The position numbers and the translations under genes are program-made. This document shows, piece after piece, positions 22,163-46,900 of a DNA stretch of 64,000 nt; within the stretch, counting starts at the first letter, position 1; the number at the start of each line of letters is the position of its first letter. Location: assembly GCA_963793695.1 (NCBI GenBank), contig CAWCBB010000008.1, forward strand, positions 6,833 through 70,832, read 5' to 3'. Source of the stretch: an uncultured Acidobacteriota bacterium (lineage in GTDB: Bacteria > Acidobacteriota > Thermoanaerobaculia > Gp7-AA8). The notes beneath the pieces are model-generated. The model was not told the DNA's origin and did not search any database. It saw only the letters and a list, made by a program, of their open reading frames with translations.

Positions 22163-22274
<112 letters not shown>

Positions 22275-23035: not shown

Positions 23036-23248
23036 CGTTCTCCGTTCTCCGTTCTCCGTTGTCCGTTCTCCGATCTCCGTTCGCCGTTCTCCGCGGCACC
23101 TCCCCGCGCCCGCGCCCGAGCCCGGATTCTCTTTCAGTCCGGACGAAACCGCGTCCGAGGTCGCAGTCCACACGATCTGCCGCGGAGAACGGAGAACGGA
23201 CAACGGAGAACGGAGAACGAAGAACGGGGAACGGAGAAACGAAGAACG
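23036..23248. repeat. heptamer array family C: (GTTCTCC)x8 ... 89-nt GC-hexamer spacer ... (GGAGAAC)x9
   Basis: cgttctccgttctccgttctccgttgtccgttctccgatctccgttcgccgttctccg at 23036-23093 and cggagaacggagaacggacaacggagaacggagaacgaagaacggggaacggagaaacgaagaacg at 23183-23248. The spacer contains ccccgcgcccgcgcccgagcccgg. Confidence 0.85.
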
Positions 23249-23338
23249 CCTTTCTCGCGGGTGGAACGTCAAAAGGGAAAACAGAAACGGCCGCGGCTCC
23301 TGTGAGCCGCGGCCGTTTCGTATCGGTTCCCGTGTTTC

Positions 23339-25129
23339 CTAGAACGTCGCGTCGAGGAACGGCCGGAGCTTCTTCGCCCGCGAGGGGTGGCGCAGCTTCC
23401 GCAGCGCCTTCGACTCGATCTGGCGGATCCGCTCGCGGGTGACGTTGAACGAGCGGCCGACCTCCTCGAGCGTGTGCTCGGAGCCCGTCGCCGACGCCGA
23501 AGCGCATCTTGAGGACCTGCTCCTCGCGCGGGGTGAGCGTCTTGAGGACGCGTCGCGTCTGGTCCTGGAGGTTCGAGACGATGACGCGCGTCGATCGGCG
23601 AGACGACGGCGCGGTCCTCGATGAAGTCGCCCAGGTGCGAATCTTCCTCCTCGCCGATCGGCGTCTCGAGGGAGATCGGCTCCTGCGCGATCTTCATGAT
23701 CTTGCGGACCTTGGAGACCGGCATGTCCATCCGCTTGGCGATCTCCTCGGCGTTCGGCTCGCGGCCGAGCTCCTGGACGAGCGAGCGCGAGGTGCGCGTG
23801 AGCTTGTTGATCGTCTCGATCATGTGGACCGGGATGCGGATCGTGCGCGCCTGGTCGGCGATCGCGCGGGTGATCGCCTGGCGGATCCACCACGTCGCGT
23901 ACGTCGAGAACTTGTAGCCGCGGCGGTACTCGAACTTCTCGACCGCCTTCATCAGGCCGATGTTGCCTTCCTGGATGAGGTCGAGGAACTGGAGGCCGCG
24001 GTTCGTGTACTTCTTCGCGATCGAGACGACGAGGCGCAGGTTGGCGACGATCAGCTCCTGCTTGGCCTGGTCGGCCTCCTCCTCGCCCTCGCGGACCTCG
24101 CGGAGCGTCTTCTTGATCGTCCTCGTGCGAGACGCCGAACTTCTGCCTCGAGCTCGCCGAGGCGCTCGCCGGTACTTGGCGATGCGGCGCTTGTAGAAGT
24201 CGCTTGCGGGTGCGGTTCTTCTCCCTCTTGAGCGACTGCTCGTCCTGGCGGATCTGGGAGTTCGGGCAGCGAGAACTGCGGTCGATGTCCTTGAGGATGT
24301 TGATCATCCGGTTCAGCGTCTGCGGGGTGAAGTCGACCGCGCGGATCAGCTTCGCCATCTCGCGAGAGCTTCTCGATCTGTTTGACGAGCCCGGCGGGCT
24401 GCGGGGCTTCTTGGCGGCCTCGATCAGCTTCGCGCTGGCTGTCCTTGATCTTCTCGGTCGAGCTTGCGCGATCTTCTTGAAGATCTTCGAGGATCTCCTC
24501 GATCTTGTTGAGGTTCTTCGCGTCGTTCGGATCGTCTTCCTCGTCGTCCGCGAGCGCGAGGTCGATCATGTCCTTGATGACCTTCGTGGTCCTTCTTGGC
24601 GTTCTCGAGACGGAGGATCTCTTCGAGAACGATCCGGTTCTTCGAGAGCGCCTGGTAGATCCTGCCCTCGCCCTGCTCGATCCGCTTGGCGATTCGACCT
24701 CGCCCTCGCGGTCGAGGAGCTTGACCGTCCCCATCTCGCGCAGGTACATGCGCACGGGGTCGTTCGTCTTCTCGATCAGCCCGGCGGCCGCCGCGGCGAT
24801 CTCCGCCTGGATCTCTTCCCGCTCGCTGACTTCCTTGTCCTCGACCCCATCGGTCGGGCTTCTTTCGGCTCGGGGATCTTGTCGACGTCGTCGACGACCT
24901 CGATCCCGACGTCCGCGAAGCGGATGTAGATCTCGTCGAGCTCTTCCGGGGTGCTGGTTACGTCTTCCGGGAGGATCTCGTAGATCTCGTCGTAGAGCAG
25001 GTATCCCTTTTCCTTGCCGATCGTGATGAGCTGTTTGACTTCCGGGTATTTGTCTTCGACGCTGAGCTCGCCAGCCTCATCGTATGAAGATTCCAGATCG
25101 AGATCCGTTGTCCGCAGACGGGTGCTCAT
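23339..25129 (-). CDS. rpoD: RNA polymerase sigma-70 (primary sigma factor); about 6 frameshifts
   Basis: Segments in three frames: [49 protein letters not shown] (region 1.1), [21 protein letters not shown] (region 1.2), [46 protein letters not shown] (region 2), MRFGVGDG, and [41 protein letters not shown] (region 4). Confidence 0.8.
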
Positions 25130-25295
25130 CGGTATGAGTTCGCTCCTTGAGGGTGAGGTGGGTGGTTCCGGTGAGTGTCGTTGCTCGGTGCGCGCTTTGC
25201 CATTCGGGCTCCGGCCCCCGCGACGACGGCACCGGCGGGGGAACGTCCGGTCGTCTTCGGAAGGAGACACTCACGTAAGCGTATGAGGATAATAA

Positions 25296-27044
25296 TTATT
25301 TCAGCGGGTGAAGCCGTCGGGAGAGCTCGATTTTTTCGCGATCCAGCGCCTGCTCCCGCTCCCCGTCTCCAGCTTCGCGCATTGCCTTGATCTCTGAAGT
25401 GATTTCCTTCAGTCGGCGGTCCAGAAAGCGTCGCTCCATCAGACGGACGGTGTCTCCGATTGAATTTGGTGAGTCGAGCTCCTTCTCGTCAGGCGCGATG
25501 GCAAGTTCGGAGAGTCTCGTCAGCTGCGATTCCCCCCTAAGATCGGTCGCAATCACAGAAAAATCAAGGGGTTGGCCCTCGCGCGCCCGCTCGGCGACCG
25601 CTCGGAAGATCGACCGGCAGTCGGCGTCGTCGAAATACTCCTCCCGGAGGTCCGCCAGCTCGCGCTTCGGGTCGGCGGCGTGGAGCAGCGCCCGGAGGAC
25701 CTCTTTCTCCCCGGTGGAGACCGGCGCGACGACCCCCTTCTCCCGCGAGCCCGCGTCGGGACCTCCCCCCGTCCGGACGCGCGACCAGACCGACGAGAAC
25801 TCCAGCCCCATCCGGTCGGCGACGCGTTGCGCGGCGTCATTCCGGAGGACCGGGTCGGACACGGCCGCGACGAGAGGGACGAGCGCCTCGACGGCCTCGC
25901 TCTTTTCCGCGCCTCGCATCGCCGCGGGATTCGGGGCGATGCGCCGCAGCGCGAAGTCGAAGACGTCGTCCGCGTTGCCGAGCAGCTCGATGAACGCGTC
26001 GAGCCCTTTCTTCCGGAGGAAGGTGTCGGGATCCTCGGAGGCGCCGACGTCGACCACCTCGACCTGCAGCCCCGCCGACAGCAGGATCGGAGCCGCCCGG
26101 AGCGTCGCGCCGCGTCCCGCCTCGTCGCCGTCGTAGGCGACCACGACCCGCTTCGCGAGGCGGCGCATCATCGCGGCCTGGCCGGTCGTGAGCGAGGTCC
26201 CCATCGAGGCGACCACCCCGTCGATCCCGGCGTTGTCGAGCGCGATGCAGTCGAAATATCCCTCGACGAGGATCGCTCGATCGAGCCGCCGCATCGCGTC
26301 GCGCGCGCGATGGAGGTTGTACAGGAGCCGCGACTTGTTGAAGATCTCCGACTCGGGCGAGTTGAGGTATTTCGGGTCGCTCCCGTCGAGCGTCCGCCCC
26401 CCGAAGCCCACGATGCTCCCGCCCTCGGAGTGGATCGGGACGATCAGCCGGTTGCGGAACCGGTCGTAAAAGCCGTCGCCGCTCTTTCGCGGCAGGACCA
26501 GCCCCGCCTCCTCCAGCTGCCTGGGCTGGAACTTCCGCCCCAGCCGCTTGAGGATGTAGTCCCACGAATCGGGCGCGTAGCCGAACCCGTACTTCCGCCA
26601 CAGCTCGGGGTCCACCTCGCGCTTCGTGAGATAGCTTTCCGCCGCGTTCGGCGTCCAGCCCAGCGCCTGATGGAACGCGCCCGCCGCTTCCTCGATCGCC
26701 TCGAGAAGGTTCTCCTTCCCGCTCTCGGACGCCTTCTCCTTCCGGCGGGGGAGCGCGATCCCCGCGCGGGTCGCGACGTACTCGACGGCCTCGGGGAAGG
26801 TGTACCGCTCGGTCAGCATCACGAACTTGAAGACGTCGCCCCCCGTGCCGCAGCCGAAGCAGTAGAAGAACCCTTTGTCCCGATCGACGTGGAACGAGGG
26901 GGTCTTCTCGCGGTGGAAGGGACAGAGCCCCTTGTGGCTCTTCCCCGCCTGCTTCAGAGGCGTGTGCTGCGAGATGATGTCGACGATGTCCGCGGCGCCG
27001 CGCACCTGCGAGATGATCGCGTCATTGAGATCGACGAAGGCCAT
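25296..27044 (-). CDS. dnaG: DNA primase
   Basis: A clean 582-aa ORF with a Zn finger (CPFHREKTPSFHVDRDKGFFYCFGCGTGGDVFKFV), a TOPRIM domain (LVEGYFDCIAL...VVAYDGDEAGRGA) and a C-terminal helicase-binding domain. Confidence 0.9.
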   Translation of the reverse strand: MAFVDLNDAIISQVRGAADIVDIISQHTPLKQAGKSHKGLCPFHREKTPSFHVDRDKGFFYCFGCGTGGDVFKFVMLTERYTFPEAVEYVATRAGIALPRRKEKASESGKENLLEAIEEAAGAFHQALGWTPNAAESYLTKREVDPELWRKYGFGYAPDSWDYILKRLGRKFQPRQLEEAGLVLPRKSGDGFYDRFRNRLIVPIHSEGGSIVGFGGRTLDGSDPKYLNSPESEIFNKSRLLYNLHRARDAMRRLDRAILVEGYFDCIALDNAGIDGVVASMGTSLTTGQAAMMRRLAKRVVVAYDGDEAGRGATLRAAPILLSAGLQVEVVDVGASEDPDTFLRKKGLDAFIELLGNADDVFDFALRRIAPNPAAMRGAEKSEAVEALVPLVAAVSDPVLRNDAAQRVADRMGLEFSSVWSRVRTGGGPDAGSREKGVVAPVSTGEKEVLRALLHAADPKRELADLREEYFDDADCRSIFRAVAERAREGQPLDFSVIATDLRGESQLTRLSELAIAPDEKELDSPNSIGDTVRLMERRFLDRRLKEITSEIKAMREAGDGEREQALDREKIELSRRLHPLK

Positions 27045-27059
27045 GGCGAGTAGTCAGGG

Positions 27060-27437
27060 AGCAGTAGTCAGGGGGAAGGGTACAACGGACGAAATCGCCG
27101 TTGGAAACGGATGAAGCCGCGGCAGGATTTCGAGGGCTGGTTCCGGGCCTGCAGGTTGAAGCGATCCGACGTGACGGCTCCCTCACGGGGAGGCCGGAGC
27201 TCGCCTGGTGTCGGAATGGCGCGAAACTGCTATGCGCGTCAGCGCGCGATCGACTTCACGAGCGAACTCATTGCTGCGGTAGCGCTCCGCTCAAGATACC
27301 AGTCTGTCGCGAGCAGCAACTCGGCTCTCGCTGAGGGATGAAAGCTAACGCTTCTCTCTTGTTTCGATACCAAGCCCGTTCGTGTTCGATTTCGAAGGGA
27401 CAGCGCGCCTCTTCGAAGAATCGAAGACGCGGGCTCA
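27060..27437 (-). pseudogene. ParE/RelE-family toxin-like gene, badly frameshifted (multiple indels)
   Basis: The minus strand from ATGA at 27437 reads MSPRLRFFEEARCPFEIEHERAWYRNKREALAF.. Fragments such as AELLLATDWYLER and EILPRLHP resemble the ParE core and its ..EILRVLHGARD C-terminus. Coordinates are approximate. Confidence 0.35.
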
Positions 27438-27673
27438 TCGATCAGATCGGTAGAGCTGGGCGCGAAGCTCTTGCCAGGAGACCGTCTTCACGCGTCCTGC
27501 GTCGAAACTCAGCCATTCGGTTCTCGACCTCGGACTGCCCATGCCTGCTCGATCTCGTCGGTTGGTCCGCTGCCCTCGTCGAGACTTTCGAGAAGAAGCG
27601 CCTCAAGTTCCGCCCGGTCTTCGGGTGCCAGCTCCGATGCGCGTTCGTACAGGTCTTGGATCGCCCGGTTCAT
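27435..27673 (-). pseudogene. addiction-module antitoxin-like small protein (TIGR02574-type) with 2 frameshifts
   Basis: MNRAIQDLYERASELAPEDRAELEALLLESLDEGSGPTDEIEQAWA in one frame, .EVENRMAEF in a second, and DAGRVKTVSWQELRAQLYRSDR* in a third. The stop overlaps the downstream toxin-like ATG. Confidence 0.45.
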
Positions 27674-27853
27674 GCTCGCATTCTACTCGCGCGCTCGGAT
27701 GATCGGCCAGGCCGCCCAACGGTTTGCCGCTGAGCCGCGGCCACCGCGCGCGAGAAAGTATAGATCTCGGAAGGCAGTAACGCAGCGGTTGGCGCGCGGT
27801 GCAGCGGCCGAGTTCGACGCAATGGCCTTAAGGTAAGCGATGGTTTCGACGAC

Positions 27854-28073
27854 GATGTCATCCCGAGCCCTCACGTCGCGCTTCGCGCTCCTCAGGGCAG
27901 GCTCCGCGAGGGATCTGGGCGGGTGGGTTACGCGTGACGCGGCACCGAAGCACGGCGGCAGGATCGAGATTCGCCTGCGATCACGAAGCGAATGCCGATC
28001 CTGCCTGCCCTGCACCGGCGCCGCGTTCTTTCGCAGCCCCCGCCCAGATCCCTCGCGTACGCTCGGGATGACA
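27854..28073. mobile_element. second, inverted copy of the MITE-like element (termini GATGTCATCCCGAGC... / ...GATCCCTCGCGTACGCTCGGGATGACA)
   Basis: It has the same 28-bp termini as 12185-12366. The interior is about 70% similar (acgcgtgacgcgg...gcgaatgccg...ccctgcaccg.cgc.gcgttctt). Confidence 0.6.
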
Positions 28074-29164
28074 GCTTCGACGGGCAACTCGCGTTAAGTT
28101 AAGGCCATTGGAGTTAGACGGCGCCCACATGCCTCGTGGCCTCTTCGCGTCGGTTGAGATAAACAGCTACCGCAGGTAGAACCGACCAGGGCGAGAACCA
28201 CATAGAACATCGCTGAGATACCGGAATGACGACAAAGAGCTGCGTGACCGTAACCGAGATACAGGCCGCAGTAGAAGCAGTCGTACAGTGCAAGCGGCGC
28301 GCTGAGAGTTGCAGCGCCAGACCGAGCTCGCTCGCGAAACCGGGGCTGATTGGAATCGGAAGAATGCTGCCGGTGACCGCGCCGAAACGCTGCGTCCGGA
28401 ATCGCTTCTAACGGCGTGGGCACGGCATTTTGGCGGGCCGCGGCCCCTGCAAGCGATCGAGTTAGCGGTGACCTGCACTTCCCCTTCTCGGCCTCAGGAA
28501 GGCTCCCACGGAGTCGCGCACCGGTACCAATGGGGCGACGAAGAAGGCGGGAGCGCGTCGCCCGCAGCGCAGGATCGCCTGGAGAGCGCAGGGACTGCAG
28601 GCTGAGCCGCGATCCTCGCGGAGCCTCCCCGAGGGGCGGCACGATAGGCCGGCGACGGCGAAAGCATCTACGCGCGCTAGAACGCCGGTCGCAGCCACCA
28701 TGAAGCGCTCCAAACCGCGGAATACGGGAACGGAAGCGTGTAAACGGTCAGAGCAGAAGGCCACCGCAGCTCCGCCATCCTGGACCTGAGCGTTCACCTG
28801 CGCGATGGTGCCGGCAGCATAGGTGAGAAGCAAGGAGCCAGCGTCGCAGCTCAGCGTTCTGCCCGCCGGTCATGCTGCGCGAATTAGGCCGTCGTCTGGT
28901 CAGTGCGATTGGTCGGCCTGACTATTCATCCATGGATTACCGGGACCGAGGATATCTGGGACGAGTTGTGCCACGTGTATCCTCGGAGGCCCTGATTCGA
29001 AGATTCTACCGCTACCAGTTCAGCTGGTGAGGGTTCCGGTGGGGCGACGAGCTCGTCGTTCGGGTCTGTTCGGACCGATTCGGTCGCGTATCCCGTCGCC
29101 GGCGGAGCGGGCGCGGTGGGGCCGGGCAGTCGATCCGCCGGCCGCACTTCCCGGCCGCGGGTTC

Positions 29165-29292
29165 GTTCCTCACTTGCGTGTAGATCAGGTCGTCGTCAGA
29201 TCGGCGTGTCGAGAAGCTTCTGGACCGTCAGGATGTCGTACCGGTCCTCGTGTGCTGCGCGATGACGTCCTTCGGTTCGCGGAAAACGAGAG
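29165..29292 (-). pseudogene. tyrosine recombinase (phage-integrase family) C-terminal fragment, 5'-truncated and frameshifted
   Basis: The minus strand reads ..GRHRAAHEDRYDILTVQKLLDTPI* and, one frame over, DDDLIYTQV. This matches the ..RHTfA..L...G.DI.TVQ.LLGHsd..TT.IYTHV box II/catalytic Tyr region. Nothing upstream, because the mutS2 stop is at 29315. Confidence 0.4.
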
Positions 29293-29294
29293 GC

Positions 29295-29317
29295 CGGGCG
29301 CGCGCAGCGCGCCCCTA
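29295..29317. repeat. REP-like palindrome GGGCGCGCGCAGCGCGCCCCTAC, overlapping the mutS2 stop codon
   Basis: An exact 23-mer, also at 46844-46866 and, reverse-complemented, at 1908-1930. Confidence 0.7.
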
Positions 29318-31681
29318 CACGTCCATGAACACGATCGTCGCGCCATCTCCCCCTTCATTCGGGTTCCCCGGCCGGAATGACCGCACGCCCGCGTGCTTCT
29401 TGAGCTGCTCGCGAAGCGCGTTCCGCAGCGCGCCGGTGCCGTGGCCGTGGATGAGGCGGACGGCTCCGCGTCCCGCGAGGAGCGCCTGGTCGAGGAACTT
29501 TTCGACTTCGTCGATCGCGTCGTCGACGCGCCGCCCGATCAGGTTCAGCTCGGCCGACACGGCCGGCTCCTCTTCGCTCGAGTCGAGCCGCACGCTGGAG
29601 CGAAGGGCCGTTTTCGCTTTCGGTTTGCTGTCGCTGGGACGGAGGTCTTCGAGCGACGCGTGCATCTTCTTGCCGGCGACGGCGAGGGTGACCTTCGTGC
29701 CGTCGATCGAGAGGATGTCGCCGGTGAAGCGAAGCGTCCTGTGCTCGGCGCGGTCTCCGACCTGGAGAGGGCGGGCGGAGGTCTCCTCGCGCGGCTCGGC
29801 GCGGTCGATCGGAAGCGTGACACTCTCGAACGACGTCTTCGCGTCCGCCTTCTTTCTCTCTTCCTTGTCGAGCTCCTTGAGGCGGCGGAGCTCCGCCTGC
29901 AGATTCCGCGAGACCTCCGCGCGCACGCGGTCCATCTCGTCCCGCCATTTCGATGCGAGCTTCTTTTTCTCTTCGGTCACGGCTGCGAGCTCCCGCTCGA
30001 GCTCGCGCTGCCGTTTCTCCATCGCCCCTTCCGCCGCCGAGAGCTCCTCGCGCCGCCGCACGACGTCCGCGAGACCTTTCTGCAGCTCGCCGACCATCTG
30101 GTCGATGTCGCCGTACCACCCGCCGAGCTTCTCGCGCGCCCGGTCGACGACCGCGCGAGGCATCCCCATCATCGATGCGATCTCGATCGCGCGGCTCCGC
30201 CCCGGAACGCCGGGGAGCATCCGGAAGGTCGGCCGCCCCGACTCGCCGTCGAACTCCATCGAGGCGTTCGCGACGCGGGGATCGCCGACCGCGAAGCTCT
30301 TGACCGCGGCGAGATGCGTCGTGACGACGAGCAGCGACCCGACGTCGAGGACGTGCTCGATGACCGCGGCGGCCAGCGCGCCCCCTTCCTCCGGATCGGT
30401 CCCCGACCCGAGCTCGTCGAGAAGGACGAGCGAGCGGTCGGTCGCGCGCGCGATCATGCGGCTCAGGCGGACGAGGTCTGCCGAGAAGGTCGAGAGGTGC
30501 TCCATCACGCTCTGGTCGTCGCCGATCAGCACGTGCACGTCGTCGACGATCGGGACGATCGATCCGTCCGCGGCGGGGAGAGGAAGACCCGAGAGGGCCA
30601 TCGCGGTGAGCAGCCCCGCGGTCTTGAGCGCGACCGTCTTTCCTCCCGCGTTCGGCCCGCTGATGACGAGCGCCGGCTTGTCCGGGGTCAGCTCGATCGA
30701 GGTCGGGATCACGCGCTGGGGGCTGTCGCTGTCGCCGAGGACCGAGCGGCGGAGCTCGGCGAGGCGCTCGTCGAGGAGCGGATGGCGCGCCTGGATCAGC
30801 CGCATCTCCCTCGCCTCGCTGAACGCCGGCCGGACCGAGCCGAGGATCGACCCGGTGATCGCCGCGGCCTGGATCGCGTCGAGCTCTCCGCCGAGCCGCG
30901 TCGCGTCGAGGATCTCGTCGCGCGCCGCGAGAAGGAGCTGGGCGAGGTGCCGCATGATCCGGACGATCTCCTCGCGCTCCTGGATGAGCAGATCCGCGAG
31001 ATCGTTGTTGAGCTCGACCGCCCCCATCGGCTCGATGAAGAAGGACGCGCCGGAGCCGGAGCGGCCGTGGAGGATGCCGGGGACTTCGCTCCGCCTCTCC
31101 GCCTTCACCGGCACCACGTACCGGTCCGCGCGGAGGGTGACGATCGGCTCCTGCAGCGCGTCCGCGTGGCGCGTCAGCACGTCGGCGAGCGCGCGCTGGA
31201 TCTGCGCGCGCTTCTGCTGCATGCGCGTCCGGATGCTCCGGAGCTCCGCGGAGGCTTCCTCTCGCAGCTTGCCGTCCTTCGTGAAGAAGCGGCCGACGGC
31301 GGAGGAGACCGCCCCCAGGTCGGGGATCGCCGAGGCGATCCGATGGAGGCGGGGAAGAGGGGGATCGAGGCGGGTCAGCGTTTCGCGAAGAGCCTGCGTC
31401 GCGCGGATCGAGCGGAGGACCTGCCACGAGTCTTCGAGCTCGAGCGCTTCGCGCGCGAGGATCGGCTCCGGGTCGATCAACCCGGCGAGCGGCACCTGCC
31501 CCTCGGTATGGTAGAAGCGGGTCATCTCCGCGAGCTCCCCCTGGAGGCGCTCTGCCTCGTCGAGGGAAGCCGCGGGACGGCGGGCGAGGAGCGCGCGTTT
31601 GCCGGGCCCGGTTCGCGCCTGCGCGGCGACCAGCTCGAGGACGCGATCGAATTCGAGGGAGCGGAGGCCTGAATCAGTCAT
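29315..31681 (-). CDS. mutS2: endonuclease MutS2 (MutS domain with a C-terminal Smr domain)
   Basis: A clean 788-aa ORF with a Walker A (LVISGPNAGGKTVALKT) and a C-terminal Smr (LNLIGRRVDDAIDEVEKFLDQALLAGRGAVRLIHGHGTGALRNALREQL). Confidence 0.9.
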   Translation of the reverse strand: MTDSGLRSLEFDRVLELVAAQARTGPGKRALLARRPAASLDEAERLQGELAEMTRFYHTEGQVPLAGLIDPEPILAREALELEDSWQVLRSIRATQALRETLTRLDPPLPRLHRIASAIPDLGAVSSAVGRFFTKDGKLREEASAELRSIRTRMQQKRAQIQRALADVLTRHADALQEPIVTLRADRYVVPVKAERRSEVPGILHGRSGSGASFFIEPMGAVELNNDLADLLIQEREEIVRIMRHLAQLLLAARDEILDATRLGGELDAIQAAAITGSILGSVRPAFSEAREMRLIQARHPLLDERLAELRRSVLGDSDSPQRVIPTSIELTPDKPALVISGPNAGGKTVALKTAGLLTAMALSGLPLPAADGSIVPIVDDVHVLIGDDQSVMEHLSTFSADLVRLSRMIARATDRSLVLLDELGSGTDPEEGGALAAAVIEHVLDVGSLLVVTTHLAAVKSFAVGDPRVANASMEFDGESGRPTFRMLPGVPGRSRAIEIASMMGMPRAVVDRAREKLGGWYGDIDQMVGELQKGLADVVRRREELSAAEGAMEKRQRELERELAAVTEEKKKLASKWRDEMDRVRAEVSRNLQAELRRLKELDKEERKKADAKTSFESVTLPIDRAEPREETSARPLQVGDRAEHRTLRFTGDILSIDGTKVTLAVAGKKMHASLEDLRPSDSKPKAKTALRSSVRLDSSEEEPAVSAELNLIGRRVDDAIDEVEKFLDQALLAGRGAVRLIHGHGTGALRNALREQLKKHAGVRSFRPGNPNEGGDGATIVFMDV

Positions 31682-31727
31682 GAGTCGGGAGTCGGGAGTC
31701 TGTCGGGAGTCTCGAGTCGAAAGTCTT
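31682..31727. repeat. family D heptamer array (GGGAGTC)x4-5 abutting the mutS2 start codon
   Basis: gagtcgggagtcgggagtctgtcgggagtctcgagtcg. On the mRNA strand this is (GACTCCC)n immediately 5' of ATG, with no canonical SD. Confidence 0.75.
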
Positions 31728-31893
31728 GAGCCGGAGCGAAGTCTACGACACGTAGGGCCGCGTTGCGCGCGGCCGCTCTCCGGTCGGATCAGGATCTAAA
31801 CCCGGGGGAACGACCGCACGCAGTGCGGCCCTACGGGCAAAAGCAAACGGACCCCAGATGCGGGGTCCGTTCAGAGATTCGCTGTTCGCGGGA

Positions 31894-33006: not shown

Positions 33007-33105
33007 GATCGTCGTTGATCGTTGATCGTAGATCGCTAAGTGAAGAAAGAGAGGTTGCCGGGGCAATGACTGCAAGACCGACGATCGAAACAAACGACCA
33101 ATCGA

Positions 33106-35064: not shown

Positions 35065-35099
35065 CGAGTTCAGTCTAACGGAACGCCGCCTGCGGCGGC

Positions 35100-35215
35100 G
35101 AAATGCAAAATGCAGAATGCAAAATGTAAAGTCCCCAAAGGCGGTCGCCGGGCGGTCTCCTTTTTGGATTTTTCATTTTGTATTTTGCCCGGGTCCGAGA
35201 TCCGAGGTCCGAGGT
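35100..35215. repeat. heptamer array family A inverted pair (AAATGCAAAATGCAGAATGCAAAATG ... CATTTTGTATTTTGC), followed by (TCCGAGR)x3
   Basis: The arms are at 35100-35135 and 35157-35188, and tccgagatccgaggtccgaggt is at 35191-35215. It is intercistronic, 35 bp upstream of the squalene-synthase-like start and just after the oxidoreductase stop. Confidence 0.8.
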
Positions 35216-38191: not shown

Positions 38192-38283
38192 CGCGGCGCA
38201 CCCCGACCGTGGCCGTGCGCACGGCACGGGCGACGTCCGCCGCGCCGGCTGGCACCTTTCTTTCTTGTTACGATGGATCTTCG

Positions 38284-39345: not shown

Positions 39346-40454
39346 GCCTGATGGCCCCCGACCAGGCTGCCCCCGCGGGAGACGCCCAGGGTCCCCCGGG
39401 GAGCGGGGGAGCCGCTTCTTCTGGTCCGCGACCTCCGGAAGTACTTTCCCGTGCAGCGCGGCCTTCTGGCGCGCACCGTGGGCCAGGTCAAGGCGGTGGA
39501 CGGCGTCACCTTCGCGATCGCGCGCGGCGAGACCCTCGGGCTGGTCGGCGAGTCGGGCTCGGGGAAGACGACCGTCGGTCGCTGCATCCTCCGTCTCATC
39601 GAGCCGACCGACGGCGAGATCTCCTTCGACGGCGCGGACGTCCGCGCGATGGGAGATCGCGAGCTCCGGCGGCTGCGGCGACACATGCAGATCGTTTTTC
39701 AGGACCCGTACGGGTCGCTCAACCCGAGGATGACCATCGGCGACATCATCGCGGAGCCGCTCGTGATCCACGGCAACGGCAACCGCGCGGAGCGCCGCGA
39801 TCGCGTCGCCGAGCTCCTCCGGAAGGTCGGGCTCGACCCTGACTACCGGAAGCGCTACCCGCACGAGTTCTCGGGAGGGCAGCGCCAGCGCATCGGCGTC
39901 GCCCGGGCGATCGCGACCAGCCCCCGAAGTTCCTCGTCCTCGACGAGCCGGTCTCCGCGCTCGACGTCTCCGTCCAGGCGCAGGTCGTCAACCTCCTGCA
40001 GGACCTCCAGGCGGAGCTCGGGCTCACGTACCTCTTCATCGCGCACGACCTGGCCGTCGTGGAGCACATCTCCACGCGCGTCGCCGTCATGTACCTCGGG
40101 AAGATCATGGAGCTGGCCGGCCGCGACGATCTCTACCGGGACGCGCTTCATCCCTACACGCAGGCCCTCCTCTCGGCCGTGCCCGTGCCCGATCCACGCG
40201 TCAGGAAGACGCGGATCATTCTTCGGGGCGACATCCCGACCCCGCTTCGCCCCCCGACCGGCTGCGTCTTCCACACCCGCTGCCCGATCGCCCGCTTCCC
40301 GATCTGCTCCGACGAAGTCCCCCCTCTGCTCGAGCATCGCCCGGCCCAGTTCGCCGCCTGCCATTTCGCGGGAGAGAAGGTGCCGGAGGTGAAGGAGCTG
40401 TCGGCCGAGGGGCGGGAGGGGCACGTCGAGGGGGCGGGCGTGCCGAAGGCATGA
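39342..40454 (+). CDS. oligopeptide/dipeptide ABC transporter ATP-binding protein (OppF/DppF-type); frameshifts near nt 39400 and 39915
   Basis: [59 protein letters not shown], and LVLDEP...[25 protein letters not shown]...HPYTQALL, in three frames. Confidence 0.8.
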
Positions 40455-40457
40455 TCA

Positions 40458-40582
40458 AAAAAATGCAAAATGCAGAATGCAAAATGAAAAATACAAAAAG
40501 GGCGTGATGCTCACGTCTCGCAGGAAAGCCCCGATTCCCTCCTCTTTTTGTGTTTGACATTTTGCATTTTGCATTCTGCATT
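40458..40582. repeat. heptamer array family A inverted pair
   Basis: aaaaaaatgcaaaatgcagaatgcaaaatgaaaaatacaaaaaggg ... cctctttttgtgtttgacattttgcattttgcattctgcatt, between oppF and the tolC-like gene. Confidence 0.85.
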
Positions 40583-40795
40583 GGGCCGCCGAAGGCGGTC
40601 GTTCGCTTTCAGCGCCCCCCTCCACCCGCTACAATGTCGCCGGCCCCGGTTCCGGCCGCGAAACTCTTCCATTCGTTCGTCGTATCCCGTAAAGGAAGTC
40701 CGCTCCCCCATCGGAGCGGCGTTTCACGGCCGCCGCGCGGGTCGAAACCGAAACCTGCCGGATGGGTACAAAGGCTCGGTCCAGGAGGAACTTGC

Positions 40796-42445
40796 ATGTT
40801 GAAATCGGTGCGTGTCGTGATGGCCCTCGGCCTGCTCGCCTCGCCGTTCGCAGCCATCGCGCAGGAGCAGCCCACGGCCGCGAAGACGCCGGCCGCGACC
40901 CGGACCACGCCGGTCCCGGAGGCGCGGGACGACGATGCGGATCCGCGCGCTCTCCGTCTGAGCCTCGCCGACGCGATCCGCGGGACGGTCGAGAACAATC
41001 TCGGCATCCGGCTCCAGCGCTACGACTATCAGATGACCGGTTGGACGGCGCGCTCGCAGTTCGGCCGCTTCGATCTGTTCAGCTTCGGGACGTTCTCCAC
41101 GGGTGACCGGCAGCCGGCCGCCGAGGGAGCGCCGAACATCGGCGACCTGACGGCGAACGTCGGCGTCCGCCAGGCCCTCTCCACGGGCGCGTCCTACCAG
41201 CTTTCGTTCAACAACAACGAAACGACGGTTCTCGAGCCGGCCTACAGCTCCGACATCCGGTTCGGCCTCAACCAGCCCCTGCTTCGCGACTTCGGCGTGG
41301 ACGTCAACCGACGCCTGGTGAACATCGCGCGGAACAACCTCGGGATCAGCGAGGGGGCGTTCGAGACGGCGCTCCTGGTCGGCGTCCTCGGGGCGGAGCA
41401 GGCGTACTACGACCTGATCTACGCGCGGCAGAACATGGCCGTCCGGCGGCAGTCGCTCGACCTGGCGCGCGACCAGGAGCGGATCACGCAGATCCGGATC
41501 GACGTGGGCGCTTCGGCGCCTCTCGACATCCTCGAGCCGCGGGTTGCGATCGCGACCCGAGAAGAAGAAGTGATCGTGGCCGAGGCCTCGATCCGCGACG
41601 CCGAGGACCGGCTGCGCCGGCTGATGAACCTTCCCGCCTCGGAGTGGGATCGCCCGATCGTCCCGACCGAGCCGATCACCTTCACCCCCGTGACCGTGGA
41701 TCTCGAAGCCTCGGTCGCGCGCGCGTTCGAGCTCCGGCCCGAGATCAAGCAGGCCGGACTCGGGGTGGAGAACGACGAGATCGAGTATCTCTACGCCCGC
41801 AACCAGGTGCTCCCCGAGCTGGACTTCAACGTCAACTACGGCGTGGCGGGCCTCGGCGGCGCGCAGATCATCCGCGATCCGCTCACGAACGAGCCGATCG
41901 GCATCATCGGCGGCGCGTTCAGCGACGCGATCAACCAGGTCTTCGGCATGGACTATCCGAACTGGTCGACGAGCTTCACGGTCGGCGTGCCGATCCGGAA
42001 CATCGGCGCGCGCTCCGAGCGGCGCCGGGCCGAGCTGAACCTCGAGCGGTCCGTCCAGGACAAGGCGGACGTCGAACAGTTCGTGGCCATCCAGGTACGC
42101 CAGGCGGCGCGTGACATCGAGACCGGATCGAGGCAGATCGCCGCCAGCAGCGCGGCGCGGGACGCGGCCGAGCAGAACCTCGAGGCCGAGCGGCGCCGCT
42201 TCGAGAACGGGATGAGCACGAACTTCGACGTCCTGCGCGTCCAGCAGGCGCTCTCCGACGCGCGCAGCCGCGAGATCCAGGCGCTCGTGAGCTACAACAA
42301 GGCCGTCGCGGCCTACCACCGCGCCGTCGGCGACCTGCTCGAGGTGCGAGGGATCGCCGTCGGCGAGCAGACGCCCGAGTTCGACATGCCGCGCAGCTCT
42401 CTCGAGAAGGTCGACTGGCTCAGGTACGGCCGCTGGGCGGACTGA
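40796..42445 (+). CDS. TolC-family outer-membrane efflux protein
   Basis: AGGAGG then ATG. Signal peptide MLKSVRVVMALGLLASPFAAIAQ. Two OEP repeats with coiled-coil character. Clean. Confidence 0.8.
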   Translation: MLKSVRVVMALGLLASPFAAIAQEQPTAAKTPAATRTTPVPEARDDDADPRALRLSLADAIRGTVENNLGIRLQRYDYQMTGWTARSQFGRFDLFSFGTFSTGDRQPAAEGAPNIGDLTANVGVRQALSTGASYQLSFNNNETTVLEPAYSSDIRFGLNQPLLRDFGVDVNRRLVNIARNNLGISEGAFETALLVGVLGAEQAYYDLIYARQNMAVRRQSLDLARDQERITQIRIDVGASAPLDILEPRVAIATREEEVIVAEASIRDAEDRLRRLMNLPASEWDRPIVPTEPITFTPVTVDLEASVARAFELRPEIKQAGLGVENDEIEYLYARNQVLPELDFNVNYGVAGLGGAQIIRDPLTNEPIGIIGGAFSDAINQVFGMDYPNWSTSFTVGVPIRNIGARSERRRAELNLERSVQDKADVEQFVAIQVRQAARDIETGSRQIAASSAARDAAEQNLEAERRRFENGMSTNFDVLRVQQALSDARSREIQALVSYNKAVAAYHRAVGDLLEVRGIAVGEQTPEFDMPRSSLEKVDWLRYGRWAD

Positions 42446-42549
42446 CGCGCGGGGGAGAGGGGCGATCGGATCACGGCGCAGACGGAAGCGAGTGTGCTAA
42501 AAGAGGCGCTGCCGTCCGTCCGTCCGATCGGCCGGAACAAGGAGATCCC

Positions 42550-43281
42550 ATGACTTCCTCCGCGGAAATCACCCCTCCGCCCACGCCCGCGCGCCGCCCC
42601 AACCCCTTCGCCAGGATCGCGGGACTCGTCAGCAACCCCTCCTCGACGATGGCGGACGTGGCCGAGCGCCCCGACTGGCTCGTCCCCTTCCTTCTGATCG
42701 TCGTCATCTCGATGGCGGCCAACTTCTTCGCCGCGCCGCACATGGATCTCGAGACGGGCCTGCGCGAGGAGCTCTCCGAGCGCGGCCTCAACGATCAGCA
42801 GATCGAGGATGCGATCGGCCGCGTGGCGACGTTCCAGAAGTTCGGCGCGCCGGTCACCGCGATCACCGTCGCCATCGTGCTCCTCGCGGTCGCGGCGCTC
42901 TACATGCTCCTCTCGCGGCTCTTCGGCGGGGAGGGGACGTTCCGGCAGTACTTCGCCGTGACGAACTACGCGTGGCTGCCGCAGCTCCTCAAGGGGGTGC
43001 TGCTCGTGCTGCTCCTCGTGCGCGCGGGATCGCTCGTGCCCGAACAGATGGGCAGCCTTCTGAAATCGAATCTCGGGTTTCTCGCGGACCCGACCGATCA
43101 GCCGATCCTCTCCGCGTTCCTGACCAGCATCGATCTGTTCAACTTCGCGGCGCTGGCCCTGATGATCTTCGGCTACGGCCGCGCCTCGAAGCTCGGGAAG
43201 CAGAAGATGGCGGTCATCGTGATCGCTTCGTATCTCGTCTGGATCGGCGTTCGGGTCGGCATCGCGGCGCTGAAGGCATGA
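42550..43281 (+). CDS. Yip1-domain membrane protein
   Basis: Five transmembrane helices, and DWLVPFLLIVVISMAANFFAAPHM. Confidence 0.65.
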   Translation: MTSSAEITPPPTPARRPNPFARIAGLVSNPSSTMADVAERPDWLVPFLLIVVISMAANFFAAPHMDLETGLREELSERGLNDQQIEDAIGRVATFQKFGAPVTAITVAIVLLAVAALYMLLSRLFGGEGTFRQYFAVTNYAWLPQLLKGVLLVLLLVRAGSLVPEQMGSLLKSNLGFLADPTDQPILSAFLTSIDLFNFAALALMIFGYGRASKLGKQKMAVIVIASYLVWIGVRVGIAALKA

Positions 43282-43300
43282 GTCGGGTGAGGACGAGACC

Positions 43301-44581
43301 TTGAAGCGCTGGATCTGGATCGGAGCCGGGGTCGCGCTCGTCGCGATCATCGTGATCGCGAGCGTCGCGAGCGGCGGCGAGAAGGGGGAGAAGGTCTACG
43401 TCGAGCCCGTCGGCCGCCGCGACATCCAGGCGGTCGTCTCCGCTCCCGGCCAGATCGACCCCAAGGTCAAGGTCAACATCAGCGCCCACGTCATCGGGAA
43501 GATCGAGAAGCTCTATTTCGAAGAGGGGCAGACGGTCCGGCGGGGCGATCGGCTCGTCGATCTCGAGAAGATCGCATTCACCGCGGCGGCGGATCAGGCA
43601 GCCTCCCTCGTCGCGAACCGCCGGATCGAGGTCCGGAGGACGCGCAACAATCTCGAGAACGCGCAGCGCGTTCTGGTCAGGGCCGAGAGCCTGAGTCGCG
43701 AAGGCGTCCTCAACCAGGAGTTGTTGGACCGCTCACGCCTCGAGCACGACACGGCCCGCACCTCGCTCGCCTCTGCCGAGGAAGGCGTCCGCCAGGCGGA
43801 AGCGGCGCTGCGCCAGGCGAGAGAGGACCTGCAGCGGACCACGATCGTCGCTCCCATCAGCGGCCGGATCGTCCAGAAGAACGCGCAGGAGGGGGAAGTC
43901 GTCATCACCGGGACCATGAACAACCCCGGATCGGTGATCGCGATCCTCGCGGACCTCTCCGAGGTGCTCGTCGAAGCCGACGTCGGGGAGACCGAGGTCG
44001 TCAAGGTGCGCGTGGGCCAGTCGGCCGAGATCCGGGTCGATGCGATCCCCGACGCCGTCTTCAAGGGGAGCGTCGTGGAGATCGGCAGCTCGGCCTCGCA
44101 GCGCGCGGGCGTGAGCACGGGCATCCGGTACTTCAAGGTGAAGATCGCGATCATCGCGCCCGACGAGCGGCTCCGGCCGGGGATGACGGCCCAGGTCGAC
44201 ATCATCACGAGCGCGCTGCGGCAGGCGCTGTCGGTCCCCGTGCAGAGCGTCGTCGAGCGGACAGCCGAGGAGCTCGTCAAGGGTAGGAAGTCGCGCGTGA
44301 GCGGCCCTTCGGACGCGCTGAAGGACAAATTCGTTTTCGTCGTCCGGGACGGCGTCGCCGAGGCGGTGAAGGTCACGACCGGCATCAGCAACGCGACGCA
44401 CGTGGCGGTCCTCTCGGGCCTCAAAGGCGGCGAGAGCATCGTCACCGGTCCCTTCCGGACGCTCCGCAACCTGAAGAAGGGTGACAAGGTCCGAATCGAC
44501 ACCGGGGAAGAGAAGGAACGCCCAAAGGATGATGCGAAGGACGGGAACGACGAGAAGGGCGAGGACGAGAAGGGCGAATAG
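43301..44581 (+). CDS. efflux periplasmic adaptor (HlyD/MacA membrane-fusion protein)
   Basis: An N-terminal transmembrane helix, a coiled-coil hairpin, TTIVAPISGRIV, and a beta-barrel/MPD domain. Clean. Confidence 0.8.
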   Translation: MKRWIWIGAGVALVAIIVIASVASGGEKGEKVYVEPVGRRDIQAVVSAPGQIDPKVKVNISAHVIGKIEKLYFEEGQTVRRGDRLVDLEKIAFTAAADQAASLVANRRIEVRRTRNNLENAQRVLVRAESLSREGVLNQELLDRSRLEHDTARTSLASAEEGVRQAEAALRQAREDLQRTTIVAPISGRIVQKNAQEGEVVITGTMNNPGSVIAILADLSEVLVEADVGETEVVKVRVGQSAEIRVDAIPDAVFKGSVVEIGSSASQRAGVSTGIRYFKVKIAIIAPDERLRPGMTAQVDIITSALRQALSVPVQSVVERTAEELVKGRKSRVSGPSDALKDKFVFVVRDGVAEAVKVTTGISNATHVAVLSGLKGGESIVTGPFRTLRNLKKGDKVRIDTGEEKERPKDDAKDGNDEKGEDEKGE

Positions 44582-44590
44582 AGGCGTTTC

Positions 44591-44717
44591 CCGTTCTCCG
44601 TTCTCCGTTCTCCGGAAACCAAGGGCCTCTGGCGTGCGTACAGGAGAATGGACGAAAAGCCGGGCCCGGGCCCGGGCGCGGGTGGGGGCGGAGAACGAAG
44701 AACGGAGAACGAAGGAC
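44591..44717. repeat. heptamer array family C inverted pair (GTTCTCC)x3 ... (GGGCCC)n spacer ... (GAGAACG)x4
   Basis: ccgttctccgttctccgttctccgg, a spacer with gggcccgggcccgggcgcgggtggggg, then gcggagaacgaagaacggagaacgaaggac. It lies between the macA-like and macB-ATPase genes. Confidence 0.8.
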
Positions 44718-44734
44718 GCCTCTCCAGGAATGAC

Positions 44735-45430
44735 ATGACGGATCAAGCGAACACCAACGGCAAGCACCTGATCGAGATGCACGAGCTGGTCAGGGTGTAT
44801 GAAATGGGCGCGGAGAAGGTGTACGCGCTCCGCGGCGTGAATCTCACGGTCGAACACGCGGAGTACGTGGCGATCATGGGGCCGTCCGGGTCGGGGAAAT
44901 CGACGCTGATGAACATCATCGGCTGTCTCGACTCGCCGAGCTCGGGCCGGTACCTCCTCGACGGGACCTCCGTCGACACGATGAACGAGGACGAGCTCGC
45001 GGCGGTACGGAACAAGAAGATCGGCTTCGTCTTCCAGACCTTCAACCTCTTGGCGCGGACGACGGCGCTCCACAATGTCGAGCTCCCGCTCATTTACGCG
45101 CGCATTCCCCGCGCGGAGCGGCGCGCGCGCGCCGAGCAGGTGCTGGCCGAAGTCGGCCTCGCCGACCGGATGCATCACCAGCCCAACGAGCTCTCCGGCG
45201 GGCAGCGGCAGCGGGTCGCGATCGCGCGCGCCCTGGTGAACCGCCCCTCGCTGCTCCTGGCCGACGAGCCGACCGGAAATCTCGACTCGAAGACCGGCCG
45301 GGAGATCCTCGACCTGTTCCGCAACCTCGCCGACCGCGGCAACTCGATCATCCTGGTCACGCACGAGGAAGACGTCGCCGCCGAGGCGACGAGGATCATC
45401 CACATCCGCGACGGGATCATCGCGAACTGA
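44735..45430 (+). CDS. MacB/LolD-type ABC transporter ATP-binding protein
   Basis: [49 protein letters not shown]...[15 protein letters not shown]...[11 protein letters not shown]. Confidence 0.85.
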
Positions 45431-45550
45431 GGGTCTGGGAGTCTCGGCGTCTGGGGAGTCGCTTCGCCTATACCCGTGATTCATGTCTCTATGGCTCGAA
45501 CCGCTCAGGTGCAGACTCTGTATTGGCCGAGGCCTAGTCTCCTAGACGCC
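45430..45550. repeat. family D inverted pair (GGGTCTGGGAGTCTCGGCGTCTGGGGAGTC ... CTAGTCTCCTAGACGCCTAGACTTCCAGACGCG)
   Basis: Intercistronic between the macB ATPase stop and the permease start (45568). Confidence 0.65.
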
Positions 45551-45567
45551 TAGACTTCCAGACGCGC

Positions 45568-46794
45568 ATGTTCTCCGAAAACCTCAAGATCGCGCTCAAG
45601 GCCCTCTGGGCCAACAAGATGCGCTCGATCCTCACGACGCTGGGGATCATCATCGGCGTCGCGTCGGTCATCGCCGTGGTCTCGCTGGTTCAGGGGATGG
45701 AGCACGGCATCGCGACCGAGCTCGAGGGCGTCGGCGCGACCTACATCCGGGTCGTCCCCGACGCCGGCGAGCAGCGGAACACCTTCAACCCGAAGATCCC
45801 CTCTCTCACGTACGACGACGGCGTCGCGGTCCTGAACGGGTCGCCGGAGATCGTCGAGTTCACGCCGATCTTCTTCCGCAACGCCGAGCTGCGGATCGGC
45901 GACACGCGCCACTCCGCGACCATGCTCGGCGTGAGCGAGTCCTACCAGGACGTCGTGAACCACTGGGTGGACCGCGGTCGTTTCTTCACGCCGCTCGACA
46001 TCGCCGAGAAGAAGCGCGTCGCCACGATCGGCATCGAAGCCGCCCGGAAGCTCGGGATCGGCGACGAACCGATCGGGAAGCTCGTCCGGATCGAGGGGAA
46101 CGCCTTCACGATCGTCGGCACGATGGAAAAGAAGGGCCAGATGTTCGCGCAGGACCAGGACGACCTGGTCCTGATCCCCTTCACGACGTCGAGCGCCCTC
46201 TACGGCCCCGAGGCCGTGCGCACGCTGATCCTCGACTTCCAGGCGGCCTCGGCCAGCTCGACCGACCTCGCCCGCGAGCAGATCCGGGACATCCTCCGCT
46301 CCCGCCACGGCCTTCGAAAGGAAGAGCAGAAGGACGACTTCCGGATCGTCCTCCAGGAAGAGATCCTCGAAGCCGTCGGCAAGGCGCTCATGATGACGTC
46401 CCTCATCATGGCCGCGATCGTCGGGATCGCGCTCCTCGTCGGCGGCATCGGCATCATGAACATCATGCTGGTGTCCGTCACCGAGCGGACGCGCGAGATC
46501 GGCGTGCGGAAGGCGGTCGGCGCGCGGCGGCAGGACGTCCTGCTGCAGTTCCTCATCGAGGCGATCGCGCTCTCGGGACTCGGCGGGGTGGTCGGCATCG
46601 GGCTGGGCGTGGGGCTCGCCATGGCCGTCCGCCAACTCCTCACGAAGTGGGTCACCTTCCCGCCCGTCCACACGCCCCTCTGGGCGATCGTCCTCGCGTT
46701 CACCTTCTGCGGCGCGCTGGGGATCATCTTCGGGATCTATCCCGCGGCCAAAGCCTCGAAGCTCGATCCGATCGACGCGCTCCGCTACGAGTAG
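45568..46794 (+). CDS. MacB-type ABC transporter permease (FtsX family)
   Basis: MacB periplasmic domain plus 4 transmembrane helices. ...GIGIMNIMLVSVTERTREIGVRKAVGA... Clean. Confidence 0.85.
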   Translation: MFSENLKIALKALWANKMRSILTTLGIIIGVASVIAVVSLVQGMEHGIATELEGVGATYIRVVPDAGEQRNTFNPKIPSLTYDDGVAVLNGSPEIVEFTPIFFRNAELRIGDTRHSATMLGVSESYQDVVNHWVDRGRFFTPLDIAEKKRVATIGIEAARKLGIGDEPIGKLVRIEGNAFTIVGTMEKKGQMFAQDQDDLVLIPFTTSSALYGPEAVRTLILDFQAASASSTDLAREQIRDILRSRHGLRKEEQKDDFRIVLQEEILEAVGKALMMTSLIMAAIVGIALLVGGIGIMNIMLVSVTERTREIGVRKAVGARRQDVLLQFLIEAIALSGLGGVVGIGLGVGLAMAVRQLLTKWVTFPPVHTPLWAIVLAFTFCGALGIIFGIYPAAKASKLDPIDALRYE

Positions 46795-46821
46795 GGGCGC
46801 CCTGCGGGCGCCGCGGCCCTG

Positions 46822-46900
46822 CGGAGAACGAAGAACGAAGAACGGGCGCGCGCAGCGCGCCCCTACGATGACGAAATCGGTCTTGCCGATTTCGTCATTT
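46822..46900. terminator. composite 3' region: a GAGAACG heptamer array, a REP-like palindrome (46844-46866) and a perfect 11-bp hairpin GACGAAATCGG-tcttgc-CCGATTTCGTC
   Basis: It lies between the convergent macB permease (+) and efp (-) genes. gcggagaacgaagaacgaagaacgg is adjacent to the REP. Confidence 0.5.

Follow-up and report, generated by a model that had tools for sequence, protein, structure and literature searches.

In a 64,000-nt stretch of an uncultured Acidobacteriota genome (Thermoanaerobaculia, Gp7-AA8; assembly GCA_963793695.1, contig CAWCBB010000008.1, positions 6,833 to 70,832 of the forward strand), hereafter the window, we identified a family of intergenic elements in which a tandem array of the heptamer GTTCTCC is followed, across a spacer, by an array of its reverse complement GGAGAAC. 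Two full copies of this family (family C) could be read directly: C1 at 23037-23248 and C2 at 44593-44717. Because the copies share their boundaries and keep a fixed arm order, they are dispersed units, abundant in this soil lineage of Acidobacteria, rather than independent products of slippage. With confidence a little above even, we read them as clade-wide hairpin elements resembling repetitive extragenic palindromic (REP) sequences and MITEs (miniature inverted-repeat transposable elements), but with arms built from repeats. These elements would be transcribed and would likely control the processing or stability of neighboring messages, with repeat number serving as a dial.

Architecture and position of the family C elements

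The arrays stand far outside what the base composition of the window would produce. Allowing up to one mismatch, the two-unit pattern GTTCTYCGTTCTYC matches 22 times, compared with 0.18 matches expected from 100 dinucleotide shuffles (maximum 2), and Tandem Repeats Finder reports the arrays independently. A first, sequence-only reading of this DNA had described 8 and 9 units around an 89-nt spacer at C1 and 3 and 4 units around a 73-nt spacer at C2, each spacer with a run of G/C hexamers. The unit counts and the hexamer runs hold, while the spacers measure 91 and 76 nt. At C2, the three units of the left arm are perfect and are directly preceded by a degenerate GTTTCCC. The two arms of C1 have a GTTGTCC variant unit in common. 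We considered this as a sign of copying between arms and dropped it, as the variants are out of pairing register by two units and the coincidence has a chance probability of ~0.4 by our own estimate.

The exact unit counts may nevertheless be off by an indel, since the window carries frameshifts. Essential and other genes are split over reading frames (rpoD, 23339-25130; nadA, 14831-16585; an acyl-CoA dehydrogenase gene, 20344-21921; alaS, 49700-52200; and a gene at 16649-18462), which indicates many indel errors in an assembly that is probably long-read derived. An assembly artifact as the source of the arrays can be rejected, because independent short-read assemblies of relatives (among the loci we label L###, these are L119, L121, L140 and L145) hold the same or analogous elements. 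Several relatives' contigs also stop inside arrays, as expected of real repeats. The window has a G+C content of 67%, and the closest named relatives of its MacA-like protein (43301-44581), which has a match of 100% identity on a 223-kb contig, are Thermoanaerobaculia of the Acidobacteriota; a metagenome scan with this protein yielded only two useful loci.

In a full copy, the outer motif (GAGAAAGGC or AGAGGC) comes first, then (GTTCTCC)n, GCGGCA and a loop specific to the locus; TGCCGC, (GGAGAAC)n and the complement of the outer motif complete it. Both the outer boundary and the inner GCGGCA boundary are kept among clade copies at non-orthologous sites, which bears out the earlier suggestion that the arrays form a real family, and GTTCTCC comes first in all paired clade copies. 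The elements, 130-230 nt in size, carry terminal inverted repeats with conserved boundary motifs. The arms themselves are direct heptamer arrays and are not self-complementary.

Next to one arm, the loop often holds a (GSGCCC)n run of hexamers followed by a T-rich tail. Five non-orthologous loci, namely C1, C2, L140 902-960, L140 1738-1810 and L145 1775-1870, have a run of GCGCCC/GGGCCC followed by GG(A/C)TTTTC immediately 3′ of (GTTCTCC)n, and because of this recurrence the run and its tail are a module of the family. The idea that the spacer as such belongs to the element survives for this module and fails for the remainder: outside it, the C1 and C2 spacers are unrelated, and each has a conserved counterpart only in its ortholog. 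The length of the run is labile, at ~4 units in the window's C2 versus ~2 in L121, which lacks the (CCGGGC) expansion. Hexamer arrays also occur without heptamers. One, in the 3′ untranslated region (UTR) of the 227-aa gene beside C1 (22198-22274), belongs to the same hexamer family as the spacer runs and has enlarged in place to 14 units versus 2 in L140; another, at L140 5890-5983, is an inverted hexamer-array pair.

Hexamer runs, read on the sense strand of the neighboring genes, make up 3 of only 11 canonical G-quadruplex motifs in the whole window. GGAGAAC has no G3 tract; within the elements, only the hexamer runs match the motif. Copies rich in GGGCCC fold as GC hairpins of 8-12 bp followed by Ts, resembling terminators, and a terminator scan flagged the C2 run on the antisense strand. 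The window's C1 copy does not fold in this terminator-like way, and its hairpin is weak. A terminator reading of the module consequently fits some copies only, and we rejected it as a general rule.

Every one of the window's 23 heptamer arrays lies between genes. In 60 kb from five relatives' loci, with genes as called, 34 of 39 heptamer arrays fall within the 15.9% of sequence that is intergenic, whereas arrays of period 9 and period 12 are mostly coding; among repeat periods, 7 nt predominates. In relatives, the 3′ arms stop 0-30 nt before start codons, and in both C1 and C2 the purine-rich arm lies exactly 17 nt from the ATG. C2 fills the gap from the macA-like adaptor gene (43301-44581; stop codon 44579-44581) to the macB-like ATPase gene, whose ATG is at 44735. 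On the minus strand, C1 follows the terminator hairpin of rpoD and precedes the 227-aa secreted-protein gene. A sigma-70 promoter scan of the spacers returned no match, with a consensus that may not be this phylum's. Coordinates of these and other features are collected in Table 1.

Table 1. Positions of family C components, neighboring features and other repeat families in the window
Feature	Position	Strand	Remarks
C1 left arm, (GTTCTCC)8	23037-23092	+	3 of 8 units with one substitution
C1 spacer, 91 nt	23093-23183		complementary ends GCGGCA and TGCCGC
C1 hexamer run, GGGCKC-type	23102-23124	-	G-quadruplex motif on sense strand of flanking genes
C1 right arm, (GGAGAAC)9-type	23184-23248	+	one unit of 8 nt
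C1 outer terminal motif GCCTTTCTCGCGGG	23249-23262	+	reverse complement CCCGCGAGAAAGGC; also present in family C copies of relatives
C2 outer stem AGGCGTTTCCC plus left arm (GTTCTCC)3	44582-44613	+	arm at 44593-44613
C2 spacer, 76 nt	44614-44689		homologous in L119 and L121, in the same orientation
C2 hexamer run, (CCGGGC)n	44660-44688	+	G-quadruplex motif on sense strand; terminator-like on antisense strand
C2 right arm, four GGAGAAC/GAAGAAC units, plus outer stem GCCTCT	44690-44725	+	arm at 44690-44717
Lone array GGAGAAC GAAGAAC GAAGAAC	46823-46843	+	between convergent permease and efp genes
Array (GTTCTTC)3	16590-16610	+	3′ of gene 16649-18462
Array of (GAAGAAC) type	18507-18539	+	(GTTCTTC)n on minus strand; 5′ region of gene 16649-18462
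Gene for 227-aa secreted hypothetical protein	22331-23019	-	ATG at 23019; window copy frameshifted near 3′ end
Hexamer array, (GGGCTC)8 then (GGGCCC/GGGCGC)6	22198-22274	-	3′ UTR of 227-aa gene
rpoD intrinsic terminator hairpin	23284-23319	-	directly upstream of C1 on transcribed strand; kept in L140, L141 and L147
Family A, (AAATGCA)n...(TGCATTT)n	14548-14679; 35098-35188; 40459-40583; 48933-49036		
Family B, (ATTGCAG)n...(CTGCAAT)n	20025-20168; 49544-49661		lone array at 12446-12481
8-nt family, GGAGTCT/GGCGTCT...GCCTAGAC	45431-45567		between macB-like ATPase and permease genes

Persistence and turnover at orthologous sites

We compared three intergenic sites with their counterparts in relatives. 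Between macA and macB, L119 (97.5% nucleotide identity) has the C2 element with one unit changed, and L121 (~82%) has a homologous element of 2 + 4 units whose spacer is conserved in orientation. In L122 and L123, the arms have drifted to AGTTCTCG and CGAGAAC, a compensating change. L120 instead carries a different hairpin with 14-nt units. It is the most telling case: its identity to the window is 98.4% across macA and 93% where macB begins, yet the entire stop-to-start spacer between the two genes has been replaced (155 versus 153 nt).

The site between rpoD and the 227-aa gene behaves similarly. Family C (GGAGAAC) is present in the window and L140, (GATAGGACN)9...(GTCCTATCN)4 with the 9-mer GATAGGACN in L141 and L142, (GGTCTGA)n in L144 and half an element in L147. 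Between macB and the permease gene, inverted arrays occur in four of four lineages, each with a different unit (the 8-nt family in the window). At that site L121 has an 8-mer, L122 a 9-mer and L125 the 7-mer CTAGGGG, all as inverted arrays. Gene context is kept for C1 in L140 and for C2 in L119 and L121. Overall, a site keeps its hairpin architecture while the sequence of the hairpin changes. Arm length varies between relatives, consistent with replication slippage, and whole stop-to-start spacers are exchanged for hairpins of other repeat families, even within species.

The C1 spacer has also changed orientation. Relative to the flanking genes, the L140 spacer is 60% identical to that of the window in the same orientation and 85% identical when reverse-complemented, and an inverted BLAST match supports the flip. 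Because the match lies in the reverse complement, the C1 arms must have recombined, or served for template switching, and so inverted the loop. Such an inversion is clear in 1 of ~5 comparable orthologous spacers, and between lineages only (~15% diverged).

The arrays flanking the gene at 16649-18462 provided a separate case. The sequence-only reading had placed them at 16583-16605 and 18490-18527 as an inverted pair bracketing one gene; the inverted arrangement is correct, with coordinates shifted to those of Table 1. It had also asked whether they delimit an insertion. In that case they could serve as terminal inverted repeats for a mobile unit carrying the gene, and three observations favor this: a 1.97-kb segment (16579-18549) is missing from L141, where the neighboring genes lie ~17 nt apart; the two arrays are mutually inverted; and the gene is more diverged (66-70% amino acid identity) than its neighbors (80-91%). 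In L145, however, the ortholog lies at the same place and is colinear and alignable end to end (75% nucleotide, 66-70% amino acid identity), with larger family C arrays on both sides. The window's array at 18507-18539, in the 5′ region of the gene, is orthologous to L145 1775-1930. The downstream arrays of L145 pair with each other, (GTTCTTC)4 with (GAAGAAC)4, in a hairpin complex of their own and not with the upstream arrays, which are in direct orientation. The arrays at 16590 and 18507 are therefore what is left of two distinct intergenic elements and not transposon ends. The product, a ~600-aa membrane protein with HExxH and helix-hairpin-helix motifs, has no transposase or recombinase domain, no target-site duplication was found around the gene, and its homologs are widespread single-copy genes across Acidobacteriota. 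We rejected the transposon reading on the L145 synteny and regard a mobile unit here as highly improbable: of the insertion idea, the absence from L141 stands and the transposon ends do not. Loss of the gene in the L141 lineage is at least as likely as gain.

Function, origin and related systems

Folded as RNA, C2 reaches -82 kcal/mol (z = -5.0) and C1 -147 kcal/mol (z = -9.1), and z falls below -3 in 45% of 33 intergenic regions tested in relatives' loci. At the C2 site, double changes between lineages affect 7 of 26 predicted pairs. The elements would lie within transcription units, with C2 separating the macA-like from the macB-like cistron and C1 belonging to the 5′ leader of the secreted-protein gene; because of this placement, transcription would yield near-perfect RNA hairpins of 25-60 bp. 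Hairpins of this length would be natural substrates of RNase III and could block exonucleases. By analogy, the likeliest effect would be control of the processing and stability of neighboring cistrons. Repeat number might then act as a fast-mutating dial, on the model of the (ATCTTTC)n hairpin in the 5′ UTR of Haemophilus influenzae hmw1A.

A number of observations weigh against this reading. Elements are dispensable, since the more distant L125 and L126 have none between macA and macB and L146 has none upstream of the 227-aa gene, and lone or decayed copies exist (46823, 16590 and 20300-20470). Low folding energies are no proof of selection, because any inverted array pair folds well, and the C2 covariation rests on only two independent lineages. 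Every functional step is one that we infer. No target-site duplication was found for the elements, there is no clean filled-versus-empty pair, and no gene for a mobilizing enzyme was found. Finally, flips of the loop and swaps of whole elements meet no obvious constraint, which suits neutral or selfish DNA as well as it suits a function.

A neutral or selfish origin without function accordingly remains a strong rival, which we rate as possible though clearly short of even. Hairpin-prone repeats, once seeded between genes, would grow by slippage, stay symmetric through intrastrand template switching (quasi-palindrome correction), spread by ectopic recombination or a putative transposase, and be tolerated only outside coding sequence, without any role in the cell. 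Rapid change of unit sequence and family at the same site, relatives without elements, and decayed and half copies all speak for it. So do hexamer runs that enlarge in place, arrays that touch start codons regardless of a Shine-Dalgarno sequence, and the insertion of (GGTCCGA)3 into the arm of another element at 35192-35215, absent from L121. Two observations point the other way, neither of them decisive: a hairpin array is kept at the macB-permease site in four of four lineages that share no common sequence there, and 3′ arms lie consistently near start codons. That the C1 spacer faces opposite ways in the window and in L140 could alternatively reflect an invertible switch, in which a recombinase would act on the arms as inverted repeats and a 91-nt flip would turn the other strand of the hexamer module (G-quadruplex or terminator-like) toward the downstream gene, giving phase variation. 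The module is asymmetric and terminator-like one way round, and C1 lies 17 nt upstream of a secreted-protein gene. We nevertheless find a switch improbable: the orientations differ only between lineages ~15% diverged, only 1 of ~5 comparable orthologous spacers has flipped, the spacer has no sigma-70-like promoter, the hexamer hairpin of the window's C1 is weak, the annotated neighbors include no recombinase gene, and 91 bp is short for recombinase-mediated looping. Flips of hairpin loops are, moreover, a known neutral type of mutation in plastid DNA. In a broader version that we consider comparably improbable, leader hairpins genome-wide would be rewritable and actively maintained, being installed, flipped and replaced by a dedicated recombinase, a RAYT-like enzyme (REP-associated tyrosine transposase) or a template-switching polymerase. 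Were this so, repeat number and module orientation would be heritable, quickly mutable expression dials for hundreds of genes. We give even less weight, and consider it very unlikely, that the arrays are binding sites for a protein that reads 7 nt (an RNA binder of the cold-shock or S1 type, or a nucleoid protein) or act through G-quadruplexes. The dominance of the 7-nt unit over other periods agrees with a 7-nt reader, and each CspB protein binds a single heptamer, as cited in PMC4679880. On the sense strand, the hexamer runs are canonical G-quadruplex motifs. A single sequence-specific binder does not fit, however, because equivalent sites are taken by at least four unrelated units, of periods 7, 8, 9 and 14. 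The heptamers also lack G3 tracts, and GGGCCC runs would form duplexes instead.

Elements with comparable parts are known elsewhere. The Correia elements of Neisseria and the enterobacterial ERIC sequences are intergenic inverted-repeat MITEs whose co-transcribed hairpins are cut by RNase III and alter mRNA stability. Their terminal repeats are of unique sequence, their interior is conserved and they duplicate a TA target, unlike family C, where no conserved interior shared among copies was found and spacers are unrelated beyond the hexamer module. The eukaryotic Foldback transposons have inverted arms of variable-number short tandem repeats around a variable loop; unlike family C, they are kilobase-sized, and some encode a transposase. 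Family C is like REP/BIME and REPIN sequences (PMC3116915) in being dispersed between genes at ~100-200 nt, with inverted arms that fold as a hairpin around a less conserved spacer of ~70 nt, and several families per genome. REP arms, however, are imperfect palindromes of 20-40 nt and of unique sequence, whereas those of family C are variable-number tandem repeats. Among the window open reading frames (ORFs) scanned there was no RAYT gene, no parent insertion sequence with the same ends was seen, and Rfam assigned none of the elements to a family.

Among long simple repeats, heptamers show the strongest over-representation in many bacteria (Mrazek 2007, cited by both PMC4679880 and PMC4692102). 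The architecture itself, of which family C is a clade-specific variant, has already been described in Xanthomonas: GGGAATC heptamers there are 89-93% intergenic, form 70-75 inverted pairs per genome, are mostly transcribed and, at variable length, mostly keep their gene context between species (Rehm et al. 2015, PMC4692102). The two share tandem heptamers in a GC-rich bacterium, intergenic position, close opposite-strand pairs and retained gene context. They differ in that Xanthomonas uses one G-rich unit, for which a G-quadruplex is proposed, while the clade of the window uses several units that are not G-rich (GTTCTCC, AAATGCA, ATTGCAG) as well as periods of 8, 9 and 14. Xanthomonas arrays lie nearer the end of the upstream gene (~28 nt), in contrast to the 3′ arm beside the downstream start codon here. 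Families that replace each other at orthologous sites, an inverted loop and an attached hexamer module belong to this clade; the description of Xanthomonas has none of them.

Two further systems bear on position and function. The 5′-UTR repeat (ATCTTTC)n of H. influenzae hmw1A/hmw2A forms a long hairpin that is cut by RNase III, and its repeat number sets expression (PMC12721329). Here too a heptamer repeat of variable count would form the arm of a long hairpin, and the 5′-UTR position and folding of family C would fit, given the presumed transcription. The hmw repeat is, however, a single contingency locus in a pathogen rather than a dispersed family, its right arm is G-rich and non-repetitive instead of an inverted array, and RNase III action is demonstrated there but only presumed for family C. 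Cyanobacterial STRR and Beggiatoaceae TAACTGA repeats (PMC4679880) are likewise heptamer arrays, overwhelmingly intergenic, patchy across phyla and often ending at a start codon. These are almost always direct, with one inverted case among 170 Beggiatoaceae sets (PMC4679880), unlike the paired inverted arrays of family C. Lone arrays of the window that abut start codons resemble the TAACTGA repeats; the pyrimidine-rich arrays at 31682-31719, 33009-33036 and 27045-27080 touch start codons that lack a Shine-Dalgarno sequence. They consist of (GACTCCC)n in front of mutS2, (GATCAAC)n in front of a uridine-kinase-like gene and the 14-mer CCCTGACTAC in front of dnaG.

The over-representation of heptamer repeats has been known since 2007 without an accepted function or origin for them, and the Thermoanaerobaculia clade offers a dense natural data set, with several families that are nearly all inverted pairs beside start codons. 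Architecture kept while sequence is lost, loop inversion and the RNase III result in H. influenzae together make the hypothesis of a mutable RNA-hairpin regulator testable. On the practical side, the elements break short-read assemblies and mislead gene callers into low-complexity protein ends.

Wider occurrence and other repeats of the window

A pattern scan of genome contigs found (GTTCTYC) arrays of three or more units at 118 or more loci across many phyla; the window's own genome was not among the matches listed. Inverted pairs among these matches come from Gemmatimonadota, Planctomycetota and other Acidobacteriota. Outside the clade, the heptamer alone is shared, while flanks are unrelated and the arm order is often reversed. 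Horizontal spread of family C beyond the clade is for this reason not supported, and the wide occurrence of the heptamer looks like recurrence or convergence within a general class of repeats. Metagenome-assembled genomes (MAGs) of Kiritimatiellaeota (L001, L004, L051 and L108) carry (GTTCTCC)4 with conserved flanks of their own (CAGGGGCGYTCT ... GGGGCG-hairpin), a dispersed family that is independent of family C but has the same heptamer. In a Vicinamibacterales MAG (L030, 3920-4240), a nested palindrome contains three tandem-repeat families symmetric about a terminator-like hairpin, which suggests hairpins growing outward through added repeat arrays.

A lone family C array had been placed at 46825-46850 next to a REP-like palindrome. 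We find it at 46823-46843, with GC palindromes on both sides (46795-46812 and 46844-46862); read on the minus strand, it forms a T-rich tail behind a GC hairpin, and L122 and L123 have no array at the corresponding site. Short REP-like GCGCC-TGC-GGCGC palindromes lie directly outside several tandem-repeat elements (35084-35100, 48922-48934 and 46795-46812).

Family C is one of at least four inverted short-tandem-repeat families in the window. In family A, the inner stem (AAATGAAAAATCCAAAAAGG) is conserved, the loop varies and the flanks are asymmetric; the element is AT-rich within this GC-rich DNA, and relatives have copies at partly different positions (L121 1591-1690, L140 3370-3485 and L141 9544-9646). 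The (GGTCCGA)3 array mentioned above lies inside a family A right arm, possibly flanked by a 3-nt TGC duplication. As the L121 ortholog keeps ordinary TGCATTT units there, one repeat family has been inserted into another. The family B copy at 20025-20168, kept in L141 and L145, nearly fills the divergent region between the start of a GHL10 glycosidase gene (20011) and a tRNA-Leu gene (20180), so both promoters must lie inside it. Beside the same tRNA-Leu gene, a GAATGCA/TTCTGCA element (20300-20470) is decayed in the window and intact in L140 and L141, which indicates that elements erode as well as turn over.

A further dispersed palindromic element, unrelated to the tandem-repeat families and with arms GATGTCATCCCGAGCG(G/T)AGCGAGGGATC, occurs in the window at 12185-12366 and 27906-28081, and in relatives at L145 8380-8571, L125 8395 and L146 45-75. 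A perfect intrinsic terminator closes a ~300-nt non-coding block on the plus strand (~21830-22155). The block is ~95% identical in L147, compared with ~85% for adjoining coding sequence, and similar by eye in L140 and L146. Rfam gave no match to this block (best E = 0.07), which we regard as a candidate for an undescribed small RNA. ARAGORN additionally called a tRNA with a 4-base anticodon at 26072-26165 on the minus strand, inside the dnaG coding region and most likely a false positive.

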